A DNA stretch of 64,000 bases from Cladosporium halotolerans (GCF_011745625.1 NW_027191463.1:62001-126000), one strand, 5' to 3'; shown: positions 24,871-29,040, counted from the first letter of the stretch. Numbers and translations are program-made. Notes: generated by a model not told the origin, from the letters alone.

Positions 24871-25412
24871 CTTGATCGGCTACTTTGGGCTAATATTTGT
24901 GGAGAGAAACGCAGATAGTGATACCGATTTAGAGGAGGTCACACCTACGCCTGTCTGTGGGGATCAAATGGCCTTTTATATTACGAGGACTACACATTAC
25001 GGCGGCACGGCATGCCGTGATGTTGTTTTGCTTGACGATCCGATTGCGTATGAGGGGCCATGATGAGGGGTTAAGCCCTTTAACGCCGGGGAATGGCTTG
25101 CCTATTCGGATTTTAGGCTATAGCCATGTTTCCACCACTTGCACGCAAGCCAGTCTATCAGTATCTTGCTTTCAAATCTTTCAAATCTTTCGTGATAGCC
25201 GTTTCAGGACACTGCTCGTCGAGTGGTTGCCATCACCGAGCTGGACGATAAGCACCACCACTCGCAAACAGGGGTAAGAAATTCCCATTTGGTGGGAAAG
25301 AAAAAGCTTTCATGTCGTTTGTAGAACAGCAAATGATTTTCGTGAGATTCTTAATCTAGCATAATAGAGATTACAGCGTCTTGAGGGCGTGAACTGATGA
25401 CATGACCAGCCA

Positions 25413-26339
25413 TCACTCCTCGCTCTTGACCCAAGCATCAAGCCACCTTACCGCCTGGAAGTAGGCGCCCTCCTGCGCAAAGGCCTTCTGCTTGACAGTG
25501 AGGTTGGTCCGGACGGCAAAGCCATGCTCAGCGTTGGAGTAGAGAGTCGTCTGGTAAGTCTTGTTGCCCTCGAAGAAGATTTCTTCGATGTTCGTGCGGT
25601 TCTCAGGCGTGCTGCTCTCGTCGAGATCGCCGAAGGCAATGCTAATGGGCGCTGCGATGGCCTCCCACTCCGCTGCTTGGGTGTTGGAAGGATGGGCGGC
25701 GAACCCGGCTTTGATGGCCTTTCCCGCTGCAAGGTACCTCGCGACGTAGCGTCCGCCGAAGCAGTAGCCGACCGAGCCGATCCTTGAGGTGTTGTACGTG
25801 GTCTGGATGGCGTTGATCGTCGTGTCCAGAATGGACTCAATCTCGGCCATGGGGTGGCGCTTTTGCCAGTCTGGAAGGCTGTAGTTCGAGGCAGGGTCTG
25901 AGAGGGCGTCTGCTGGAACAGGGTCGCCGCGAAAGAGGTCAGGCATCACGACCAAATAGCCGGCTTTGGCGATGCTATCTGCCAGACTGAAACGTATGGT
26001 ATGAGTGTGAGTCTGTACGAGCGTGGGATTGTAAGTTACTAACAGCTTGTTGTTGATCAATGCATTGCCAAAGATGTCTGTCATGTACAGTACGGCTGCC
26101 TTTGCGTGGTGACCTGGTGGGTATGAAACGTAGCCAGTCTCTGAAAGGCAGTGTTAATAACAGCACCATTGTCTGCACAATCCAGAGAGCGTACCATTGC
26201 CAAGGGAAACATCCTGTCCGGCCGCAGTGCCGTTGTTGAAGACAGCACCAGCGTGCTCAGCCTTCAGGCTGAGTCCATTGACAGCCCTGCAGCTGCTTGC
26301 AAGAAGCGTCACTGCCGTCCACGTGAATTGAAGTCTCAT
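25413..26339 (-). CDS. Dienelactone hydrolase family protein with predicted signal peptide
   Basis: TDIFG, PDLFRGD, nucleophile GYCFG, AHPS, HGFAVR. Exon 1 encodes MRLQFTWTAVTLLASSCRA; two short introns. Confidence 0.88.
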
Positions 26340-27206
26340 GTCGCGATAGATTGACTTGTGTATAGGGAGAAATCGTCAATGGAATGAATAGAGGTGTCGC
26401 TGGGATCCAAGAAGTCTGGAGGTAGCGGCGATCTCTGGGTATACATGCTCGTCCGGACTTTATCTCTGGGCACCTCCGGGATCTGCAGTCGATGTTTCAT
26501 GCCAAGTAGACAGATGCAGGACTAGACTGTGCGGAACCGTAGGTGGCGCCCATCCTTGCACGTGGGTTGCGGTTCTTCCTGCTTCACCTTTACTTCCTCA
26601 CCATCCAGGTCTGCAGTCAGACACTTTAGACCTGGCCCGACACCGCCGCCCTTCGTCTTGGCTGCATGTCGATCGGGAAGAGTTCAGCCATGTGGCGCGC
26701 GGCAGAGGAAGAGAACTTCTAGAATCGATAAGGCACAGATGCCGCATTGCGATGGAGGTGCTTCCCAGACCAGTCGCATATACGAAGGCAGGCAGTGGCG
26801 TGTCAGCACAAGGCGCCAGACCTCGGAGCATTGCTGCTGTTGATTTGGGACGTTGATCGCCCTAATCAAGCTGATACAATACCTCAAGATTTCGTGACGT
26901 ACAAGACGACGGCATCGGCAGATGGTGCCTTGCTCCATTCCGTGCCCTGATCAGCAGAGATCGGCGCGGAGAAAAGTACCGCGCCTCTCGCGATTTTACA
27001 AATGATGGAAGTGCCACTTGAGATCGACTTGATTTGGTCAAGGTCGGGTGCAGCACCAATTTATCTTTTGTTATAATATTACCTAGCTGTCTTTTTTCGC
27101 TTCATGGGTTGAGAGCAAATAGGGTGGTGGTGGAAGGGCGTGATATAACATGATTGTGAATTTAATTGCAGCGATTGACATCATCGAACGTCCAGTTCAA
27201 CCCACG

Positions 27207-27334
27207 AGCTGAGTGGCGCAGCGGAAGCGTAAGTTATTACTCCCGCAGTATAGTGTCATCTCTACACATTCTAACATCTCTCAGGCGCCGGGCTCATAAC
27301 CCGGAGGGCAATGGATCGAAACCATTCTCAGCTA
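27207..27334 (+). tRNA. Initiator tRNA-Met (CAT) split by a 56-nt GT-AG intron in the D-stem (exons 27207-27228 and 27285-27334)
   Basis: The joined exons give 72 nt: AGCTGAGTGGCGCAGCGGAAGC|GCGCCGGGCTCATAACCCGGAGGGCAATGGATCGAAACCATTCTCAGCTA. Acceptor stem AGCTGAG/CTCAGCT (A1-U72), D-stem GCGC/GCGC, anticodon arm CCGGG-CTCATAA-CCCGG, T-arm AATGG-ATCGAAA-CCATT (A54, A60). Confidence 0.93.
27229..27284 (+). other. Spliceosomal-type intron within tRNA-iMet
   Basis: 5' GTAAGT, branch site TTCTAAC (CTAAC at 27271-27275), 3' TCTCTCAG. Its size and signals match the mRNA introns in this window. Confidence 0.88.
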
Positions 27335-27335
27335 C

Positions 27336-27346
27336 TTTTTTTTTTT
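27336..27346 (+). terminator. RNA polymerase III oligo-T terminator (T11)
   Basis: Run of 11 T starting 2 nt after the tRNA discriminator A. Confidence 0.85.
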
Positions 27347-27682
27347 CTTTTGCCCTTCCAGTCTTAACCAGGAAAGGGCAGGACGTCTTGAAATTGTTCC
27401 CCATTTTTGCCTGCAAATTCGACAGAAAGGAACCATCCCGATTCAACCGTGACTGTCGAATGCACCTTACAACCGTGCCAGGCTCTGCACACGTTTGTTC
27501 CACTAACTCGACTATCTCCTGAGGCTTGACCAAGCTCCTCTGCACGTACACATGGACGACACGGAAACATGATTTTGAGAATCCCAACATCAAGTTTCCA
27601 ATCCGACGTTGGCTACAGTATTTCTCGAGGGACTAACGGTTAAAATGAGAGTGAGAGTAGAAAGTGCAATTGAACTCGCATT

Positions 27683-29040
27683 CTACTCATACGTGTAGCA
27701 GAACAGCTCGCCCTCAGTGTTCAAAGCCTCGCGCAAGGTTATCGGCGGCGCGATGGCTCCGAGATCGATCTGGAAGTCGAGAGTCACATTCTCGCCGCCA
27801 AAGTCGAGGTAGTGCACTGGACCGCCAATGTCGGTAAGCCTATTTTCGAGATCCTTTTGCTGCCACTTCCAGAAAACGTAATCAATCATTGTGTGGTGCA
27901 TGTAGAAGAGAGGTTCTGGGAGAAGTTAGCAAGCTTTCTACAACAACTGGACCAATCGATATACTCACCACCGGGGCTGTTGGCAGCGTCTCCAGCCTGG
28001 CCGAGCATGCCGCCGACGCCAAAGTGGCCACCTGCGTGGATCGCCGGGATAGCGAAAGATGGTCCACCCTCAAGCTGGCGAGCGAACTTGGTGTAGTTAG
28101 GCTGGTCGAGGACCAATTGCACCTGCTTGGGATCCGCATCCTCGTGCAGGACAGCTTGATCTTTAGTCAGCACAATCCTCTTGGAATCACGCATTGTTGC
28201 GAGACACGTACCTGGAAGGAAGTCACGGCGAAGGCAGGATGAGCCATTCTTCTCACCAATGTTCACATGGAAGTTGGGCACCGTAAACGGACCATCTTGG
28301 ACGCATCCACCTCCCGAGCGGCCCCAAGCCCTGAACGGACCCTCCACCTCTTCTGGCAGCTCGACGTACTTGCCATTGCCACCGAAACCCACAGTCGGAG
28401 AGAAGACATCAGTGTCATAGATGGCAACGGACAGGTTGTTGTTGGGCTGTGCATCGAGAGACCAGTTCCAGTATCTATGAGCTGTCAGCATCTGTATCAA
28501 CAGAACCAGACCGGAGCTGACTTACGGCTGGCTGCCCTTGTATCCACAAACGTCCCGGAGAGTCCTCTCGTACTCGTGCATCATGTAACGATGCCATGAC
28601 GCAAAGTGGCCAACGAAATGAATGTTTGGAGTTTGAAGGTTGTGCACCGCGTGGAAGTCATCGTAACGATTGATCGGGTTAAGATCACTGTTGTTGGCAA
28701 ACTGCTCTTTCGTGATGGCCGGTTGGTGTTGGAGACAGAGAACTGCGTCGATGTAGTCCTTCTTCTCAACATCGGTCAAGGCTCGCCTGGGTGTCAAGTG
28801 TCAGTGTTTCTCCTCGCCTGACAATACCTTGGATGCTACGCACCATTCCTTCCTGACGCGAGGGTTCTCGCAGGCTCCAGTACCTTTTGGGGGAGGGTAC
28901 GGAGTTGGTGCCTCGGACTCACAAGGCTCGCTTTCTTCCTGCGGAGACCTAGACAGCAGCGAGTTGGACGCTCCAGCAGGAGCCGCAATGATGTTGCAGG
29001 CCGAAGTCAGGACGACCGCTGCAGTAACGAATGAGTGCAT
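27683..29040 (-). CDS. Secreted short tyrosinase/polyphenol oxidase (type-3 copper)
   Basis: Signal peptide; RKEWRAL; CuA RYDDFHAVH..IH..F..WHR; PYWNW; CuB IHAGGH..SPGEPLFYMHH. Four introns; ends LFCYTYE with no C-terminal shielding domain. Confidence 0.92.

Follow-up and report, generated by a model that had tools for sequence, protein, structure and literature searches.

The window, by which we mean the whole 64-kb stretch of DNA that was analysed, contains a split gene for initiator tRNA-Met on the plus strand at positions 27207-27334. Its two exons, of 22 and 50 nt, are separated by a 56-nt intron, and the whole lies in a non-coding interval flanked by two minus-strand genes. The features of the locus and its surroundings are given below in window coordinates. 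Counts out of eight take in the window and seven distinct full-length sequences of the same split gene from metagenome contigs, together representing eight distinct introns and four exon variants.

25413-26153, minus strand: dienelactone-hydrolase gene, on the upstream side of the tRNA locus
26392-26856, plus strand: open reading frame, a 154-codon stop-free frame with no Pfam match and an Arg/Pro/Ser/Cys-rich translation
27144-27148, plus strand: weak TATA-like element, located 63 nt before the 5' end of the tRNA; a possible TFIIIB/TBP site by presumed function
27207-27228, plus strand: exon 1, 22 nt (AGCTGAGTGGCGCAGCGGAAGC), providing the 5' strand of the acceptor stem, the 5' strand of the D stem, the D loop and the first two bases of the 3' strand of the D stem
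27214-27224, plus strand: A box TGGCGCAGCGG, tRNA positions 8-19, entirely within exon 1; invariant in 8/8 orthologs
27229-27284, plus strand: spliceosomal-type intron, 56 nt, between tRNA positions 23 and 24 in the 3' strand of the D stem
27229-27234, plus strand: 5' splice site GTAAGT (GTAAGT in 7/8 loci, GTATGT in 1/8)
27270-27275, plus strand: branch site TCTAAC, whose branch A, at 27274, precedes the 3' splice site by 10 nt (CTAAC in 6/8 loci, CTAAT in 2/8)
27282-27284, plus strand: 3' splice site CAG (CAG or TAG in 8/8 loci)
27285-27334, plus strand: exon 2, 50 nt, providing the last two D-stem bases, the anticodon arm, the variable loop, the T arm, the 3' strand of the acceptor stem and the discriminator A
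27295-27297, plus strand: anticodon CAT, in exon 2
27313-27323, plus strand: B box GGATCGAAACC, in exon 2, within a T arm that has the initiator-type A54 and A60
27336-27346, plus strand: run of eleven T (T11), probable Pol III terminator, one base (C, 27335) past the discriminator A
27683-28843, minus strand: tyrosinase gene converging on the tRNA gene; the end of its last coding exon is at about 27683
27916-27968, 28475-28525 and 28787-28843, minus strand: short GT..CTRAC..AG introns of the tyrosinase gene (heuristic assignments)

The tyrosinase stop codon is about 340 nt from T11. The open reading frame at 26392-26856 is probably a chance frame in G+C-rich DNA, in which case the tRNA would be preceded by about 1 kb without coding sequence. 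We found no convincing protein gene overlapping the tRNA locus on either strand, and no host protein gene for the intron.

When the two exons are joined by script, the result is a 72-nt tRNA-Met(CAT) that ARAGORN folds into a perfect cloverleaf, with all 21 stem pairs standard. Eukaryotic initiators are distinguished by an A1:U72 pair, by an anticodon stem with three G:C pairs at its foot, and by a T loop that contains A54 and A60. The marks that can be read from the sequence are A1:U72, the G29-31:C39-41 run and a GATCGAAA T loop. In 7/7 aligned orthologs there is no change in the pair of A at 27207 with T at 27333, in the anticodon stem (CCGGG/CCCGG) or in the T loop (ATCGAAA), and the core of the B box, GATCGAAAC, is likewise invariant. 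Positions 1-3 and 7-22 of exon 1 are identical across all orthologs. Judged by its cloverleaf, its CAT anticodon and these initiator marks, the split gene encodes a cytoplasmic initiator tRNA-Met. An earlier reading, made from the sequence alone, had assigned the A box to exon 1 and the B box to exon 2, had noted T11 after the gene, and had described an AT-rich 56-nt intron with no run longer than TT and stems free of mismatches. All of its coordinates are correct, the intron has 61% A+T and 19 T with a longest T run of 2, and the stems are perfect both in the window and in the orthologs described below.

The split locus is present in a single copy within the 64-kb window. A search for sequencing runs that share sequence with 25300-28700 listed 20, of which six were RNA runs with shares of 0.10-0.13, too small to say anything about expression. 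Neither ARAGORN in default mode nor Rfam at its gathering score called any tRNA in the window, and the Rfam tRNA model gave 21.6-27.8 bits for 6/7 of the orthologous loci, below the gathering score of 29. The split gene thus escapes the standard finders, and its absence from an annotation is uninformative.

Orthologs were collected by scanning metagenome contigs with a pattern combining the end of exon 1 with GTNNGT, which returned 34 loci. Nine of these are the same split gene with its intron at the same site (L003, L009, L010, L015, L020, L024, L026, L033 and L034). L020 ends at a contig edge and L033 is identical to L010, leaving seven distinct full-length sequences. The other 25 loci comprise seven unsplit initiator-type tRNAs, two tRNA-like 5' halves and 16 chance matches in unrelated sequence. 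The seven unsplit tRNAs belong to other eukaryotes, in which the anticodon stem happens to start with GTGTGT, GTGCGT or GTGGGT. As a control, the same pattern was run against 185,579 prokaryotic genomes; it returned 13 loci, with a tRNA second exon in 0/13.

Some loci outside the split family have an organisation of their own. In L023 (501-893), an unsplit initiator-type tRNA is followed 372 nt later by a second copy of its 5' part, which runs directly into the acceptor 3' end and so must have undergone an internal deletion. Both copies have a similar TATCCCGA..GATGTAAAAAGG motif in front of them, and other tRNA genes lie between the two; the locus looks like a repeated tRNA array from a non-fungal organism or a virus. 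L007 (15-80) and L032 (494-560) contain an exon 1-like tRNA 5' half (ATCAAAGTGGCGCAGCGGAAGC), then a hairpin with a CCTAA loop, and have no T arm or acceptor 3' strand; this element may be tRNA-derived, such as the head of a SINE. L008, L022 and L029 are A+T-rich contigs in which an unsplit initiator-type tRNA has further tRNA genes within about 100-150 nt. Unlike the fungal split loci, they have no oligo-T directly after the unsplit tRNA.

The analysis of covariation used an alignment of the seven full-length loci. The duplicate L033 and the incomplete L020 were excluded, as was the window, whose exons are identical to those of L015 and L024. All 147 of the 147 stem cells in this alignment pair. 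Compensatory changes on both sides of a pair occur in 7/21 pairs, three in the acceptor stem and four in the T stem. The covariation score is 0.413, compared with a mean of 0.107 for shuffled alignments (0/500 shuffles reach 0.413) and with at most 0.082 when the pairing partners are slid. Covariation of this kind in the orthologs places the gene beyond chance.

The loci come from well-separated fungi. The ORC1 homologue encoded in the window is 91% identical to a Cladosporium fusiforme protein, and its next named relatives are from other Dothideomycetes. L010/L033 and L026 share a divergently oriented neighbour, a gene for PI-specific phospholipase C, whose nearest named relatives are from Helotiales (Cadophora, Acephala and Mollisia; ~72%). 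With both Cladosporium-like and Helotiales-like lineages represented, the split gene has been kept in at least two classes of filamentous ascomycetes. The flanks and the intron interior have been randomised; among the window, L015 and L024 the flanks cannot otherwise be aligned.

The perfect stems, the compensatory changes and the conserved intron site are strong evidence for a live gene rather than a pseudogene, and for an old intron. The sequence-only reading had likewise judged the gene to be live, and this is borne out, with oligo-T also kept in 8/8 loci and no ortholog with degenerate stems among the seven aligned. A working gene would almost certainly need to have its intron removed. The gene might nevertheless be conserved only as a minor, regulated or slowly decaying copy, possibly never spliced, with unsplit paralogs supplying the initiator tRNA. 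Our scan pattern, which demands GTNNGT after exon 1, is blind to unsplit fungal copies, and the uninformative annotation record agrees with this explanation too, given that the standard finders miss the split gene. But a functionless gene would not keep 147/147 paired cells and seven compensated pairs, nor would one expect its splice signals and terminator to stay intact across two fungal classes in which the flanks and the intron interior have been randomised. We therefore consider such a minor copy improbable and retain the working gene as our preferred explanation.

By every sequence criterion the intron is spliceosomal (U2-type, GT-AG). Its length varies from 48 to 57 nt across the orthologs, always at the same site, and in 8/8 introns the distance from the branch A to the 3' splice site is 9-12 nt. 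Invariant intron columns are restricted to GTA.GT, CTAA and the terminal AG, with no conservation of the interior. For comparison, the nine most stringently picked mRNA introns of the window, taken from lists that were compiled by motif- and ORF-based heuristics and not from annotated introns, are 45-80 nt long and similar in appearance to the tRNA intron. One feature noted in the sequence-only reading, a (CT)n-like pyrimidine tract, is real in the window, where the intron tail is ATCTCTCAG, but it is not kept in the orthologs, whose tails past the branch point are A-rich.

We also considered whether the intron could be a member of a repeated family. Introner-like mobile introns of Dothideomycetes occur in many near-identical genomic copies. 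In a blastn search limited to the 64-kb window the intron matches only itself, and the introner reading has no support within this stretch. That distantly related fungi have the intron at the same position suggests a single insertion long ago.

If the spliceosome is not responsible, the intron would have to be removed by self-splicing or by the tRNA splicing endonuclease, cutting at a non-canonical site of the kind known from red algae and nucleomorphs. We rejected an intron of the tRNA-endonuclease (Sen/BHB) type: the intron is at position 23/24 and not 37/38, and the central 4-bp helix of a bulge-helix-bulge (BHB) motif forms only 0-2 of its 4 pairs in 8/8 loci. Conservation in the intron coincides exactly with the fungal 5' splice site, the branch site (its A 9-12 nt from the end) and the 3' AG, a pattern that speaks against the endonuclease and self-splicing alike. 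At 48-57 nt the introns are, moreover, far too short for a group I or group II intron. What can be said in favour of the endonuclease is that non-canonical tRNA introns, D arms included, do occur in some algae and archaea, as described in the available text of PMC3978253 and PMC4090602. Taken together, a non-spliceosomal route appears very improbable, and we continue with the spliceosomal one.

The sequence elements that bear on the choice of polymerase are the intragenic boxes, the downstream T run and the upstream flank. The A and B boxes are part of the D and T arms of the mature tRNA, so that they provide no independent evidence and do not discriminate between polymerases. They are 88 nt apart in the window and 80-89 nt apart in the orthologs. 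Judging by work in yeast, spacings of 80-89 nt are probably within the tolerance of TFIIIC. The T run is more telling. A run of at least five T (T5+) starts 2-18 nt downstream of the gene in 8/8 loci, whereas the loci's own flanks contain 15 such runs in 9742 nt, corresponding to a chance of about 0.027 per 18 nt for each locus. The window has 52 T5+ runs in 128 kb, counting both strands, and T11 is its sole T run of at least eight on either strand. The downstream oligo-T is beyond chance. At the level of sequence, both characteristics of a type 2 Pol III gene, intragenic A and B boxes and a downstream oligo-T, are present, and the conserved oligo-T suggests that Pol III is the likeliest polymerase.

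Internal T runs could interfere with transcription by Pol III, and the sequence-only reading had stated that the intron avoids them. The longest T run in the 8/8 introns is 2-3, and none contains a run of four or more (T4+). When the window intron is shuffled, the probability of a longest run of at most 2 is 0.14 and that of at most 3 is 0.60. Shuffling the interior of each intron gives probabilities of 0.43-0.91 for a longest run of at most 3, with a product over the eight of 0.068, to be read with the caveat that the introns are not all independent. Depletion across orthologous introns, which the earlier reading had proposed as a check, thus goes in the predicted direction but is not significant. 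The flanks contain 51 T4+ runs in 9742 nt, from which about two would be expected in 419 nt of introns, and the probability of finding none is about 0.13. Among the heuristically picked mRNA introns of the window, T4+ runs occur in 5/38, 16/68 and 15/88, depending on stringency (13-24%), and in 0/9 of the strictest list; 76-87% of these introns are thus as free of T4+ as the tRNA intron. The scarcity of T runs cannot be told from chance (P about 0.07-0.15), and selection against them is not demonstrated. The claim of avoidance has to be given up; what can be said is that the introns are compatible with read-through by Pol III.

The upstream flank is ambiguous. A TATA motif is found 44-63 nt upstream of the tRNA 5' end in 6/8 loci; L009 has none and L024 offers only 20 nt of upstream DNA. 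L010 and L026 have a common CCAAT-containing upstream block. The TATA-like motifs and the CCAAT block fit a TFIIIB site, and they would also fit a Pol II promoter. On closer inspection, L010 (430-493) and L026 (minus strand) have kept two upstream blocks while the intron interior has been scrambled: TATA[G/A]CAAGATAAGACTC at about -62, and AACCAATGGCTCAA[C/T]GGTC at about -31 to -12. The start of the PI-specific phospholipase C gene is about 310 nt away, upstream of the tRNA and on the opposite strand, and the blocks could be promoter elements for the tRNA or for the phospholipase C gene.

These observations raise the possibility that the gene is functional and spliced by the spliceosome, but transcribed by Pol II, either as a short non-coding transcript of its own or as part of a divergent or read-through transcript, and that RNase P and RNase Z excise the tRNA from the spliced RNA. 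The spliceosome is normally assisted by the cap and recruited co-transcriptionally with Pol II, which favours this possibility and counts against transcription by Pol III. The TATA-like motifs at 44-63 nt in 6/8 loci point the same way, as do the conserved blocks of L010 and L026, including AACCAATGGCTCAA, and the divergent phospholipase C start, which places a Pol II promoter region nearby. A T5+ run within 18 nt of the gene in 8/8 diverged loci is difficult to reconcile with Pol II, being a Pol III stop with no known use by Pol II, and the transcribed part contains no T4+ run. Nor is a common host transcript visible, given the unalignable flanks of the window, L015 and L024, and the window has no credible same-strand gene upstream. 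Transcription by Pol II therefore seems unlikely to us, and Pol III remains the polymerase of choice.

Finally, we examined how the precursor might fold before splicing. The sequence-only reading had held that the D arm cannot fold until the intron has been removed, and that splicing may have to precede processing by RNase P and RNase Z. In the predicted structures, GCGC (positions 10-13) pairs with the final GC of exon 1 and the initial GU of the intron, resulting in a surrogate D stem of four pairs, in which the GU takes the place of the GC that the intron has displaced. This surrogate stem is part of the minimum free energy (MFE) structure in 3/8 precursors, and the full cloverleaf containing it is within 0-3.3 kcal/mol of the MFE in 8/8. 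Forming the true D stem with the intron looped out would cost 5.3-8.9 kcal/mol. In MFE structures calculated with a 10-nt leader and a short trailer, the acceptor stem is kept in 6/8 and the T stem in 7/8. The acceptor and T arms, which are read by RNase P and RNase Z, are entirely exonic and would be available beforehand; together with the surrogate D stem, this means that splicing need not precede RNase P and RNase Z. The first statement of the earlier reading is thus contradicted by the predicted folds, and the second does not follow from them. In the window the surrogate D arm spans 27210-27232, and the arrangement is invariant in 8/8 loci, as are both pairing partners. As the surrogate stem buries the GU of the 5' splice site in a helix, U1 would have to compete with the fold.

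The explanation that we favour, with moderate confidence, is a working nuclear gene for initiator tRNA-Met in a Cladosporium-like Dothideomycete, containing an old intron of the spliceosomal type, transcribed by Pol III and freed of its intron by the spliceosome. We infer the polymerase, splicing itself and the order of the steps from the features described above, and envisage the following pathway. TFIIIC would bind the A box of exon 1 together with the B box of exon 2, over a distance of 88 bp. Pol III would start a few bases upstream of the gene, read through the 56-nt intron, which has no T4+ run, and stop in T11. The resulting transcript of about 150 nt would lack an m7G cap and could adopt a near-normal cloverleaf, with the GU of the intron completing the surrogate D stem. 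The spliceosome would then recognise GUAAGU, UCUAAC and CAG and take out the intron, just as it processes the U6 precursor that Pol III makes in fission yeast. The ends would be finished by RNase P, RNase Z and the CCA-adding enzyme, before or after splicing. Apart from the usual coupling of the spliceosome to Pol II and the cap, a point that counts against this pathway is that exon 1 and the leader together provide only about 30 nt. On balance, the tRNA probably depends on the spliceosome.

Whether this dependence is complete is a separate matter. We regard it as conceivable, though doubtful, that in a large part of the filamentous ascomycetes, including at least the Cladosporium-like Dothideomycetes and the Helotiales-like Leotiomycetes, every gene that supplies the initiator tRNA is split by a spliceosomal intron. 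If so, all translation initiation in these fungi would need the spliceosome to act on a Pol III transcript. The initiator would then be the first tRNA to depend on the spliceosome, and protein synthesis would be tied directly to splicing capacity; the 5' splice site hidden in the surrogate D stem could serve as a checkpoint for folding or quality.

The introns of tRNAs and those of mRNAs are taught as separate worlds, served by separate machines. A spliceosomal intron conserved in the one tRNA on which all proteins depend would mean that the spliceosome can serve a second class of Pol III transcripts, and would provide a natural substrate for studying splicing without Pol II and a cap. It would also account for the failure of the standard finders to detect the gene; fungal initiator tRNA genes may be mis-annotated as absent in many genomes. 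The gene would further be a dated example of an intron retained at one site for a very long time. As to why the initiator tRNA should be the host, we can only speculate. Initiator tRNA serves as the primer of some LTR retrotransposons, which brings it into contact with reverse transcriptase more often than other tRNAs, and this contact might be the reason.

To our knowledge, there are no fungal initiator tRNA genes with introns of the canonical kind. The canonical introns of eukaryotic tRNAs are at position 37/38 and are removed by the Sen endonuclease and tRNA ligase (PMC10275265 and PMC4090602, in their available text). Like these, the intron described here is situated between the A and B boxes of a nuclear tRNA gene and needs to be removed. 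It differs in its position (23/24), its length (48-57 nt) and its GTAAGT, CTAAC and YAG signals, and in having neither an anticodon-intron helix nor a BHB. Non-canonical and multiple tRNA introns, as well as permuted tRNA genes, are described for Cyanidioschyzon merolae, nucleomorphs and Archaea in the available text of PMC3978253 and PMC4090602. The likeness is that the interruptions are outside the anticodon loop, D arms included, and that standard tRNA finders miss both. Those systems use a BHB and the tRNA endonuclease, whereas the split initiator gene has no BHB and carries spliceosomal signals.

Our search of the literature, which covered sources other than subscription journals and supplements, retrieved no report of a spliceosomal intron in a tRNA gene, and word look-ups in PMC6619189 and PMC6108506 did not bring one up either. 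The roster of non-coding RNAs with spliceosomal introns in the available text of PMC5855946 (U1, U2, U5, U6 and rRNA) includes no tRNA. In the corresponding text of PMC10275265 the string "spliceosom" occurs once, in a contrast with tRNA splicing, and in that of PMC4090602 it is absent. A spliceosomal intron in a tRNA gene has probably not been described before.

Spliceosomal introns are known from other non-coding genes of fungi, namely those for U1, U2 and U5 of Rhodotorula hasegawae and the rDNA of ascomycetes (available text of PMC5855946). These cases resemble ours in that the introns reside in fungal genes without a protein product. They differ in that snRNAs other than U6 are made by Pol II and rRNA by Pol I, and here the host is a tRNA.

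The closest parallel is U6, and the comparison with intron-bearing fungal U6 drawn in the sequence-only reading is apt, the tRNA intron having the marks of a spliceosomal intron and none of an endonuclease intron. Many fungal U6 genes have mRNA-type introns that are conserved only at the splice signals, and the sole U6 gene of S. pombe is transcribed by Pol III, has its B block within the intron and is spliced by the spliceosome (PMC5855946, in the part of its text available, which cites Tani and Ohshima 1989, 1991 and Canzler et al. 2016 for work on U6 introns). The split tRNA gene shares with these the short GT..branch..AG intron in a gene for a structured RNA, the intragenic Pol III blocks and the oligo-T stop. 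As with U6, the transcript of the tRNA gene would lack an m7G cap and yet is expected to be spliced by the spliceosome. There are also two differences to the U6 genes. U6 is a component of the spliceosome and the tRNA is not, so that the origin proposed for U6 introns, reverse splicing into an RNA of the catalytic centre, is not obviously applicable. Moreover, the B block of the S. pombe gene is intronic, whereas both promoter blocks of the split tRNA gene are in its exons.
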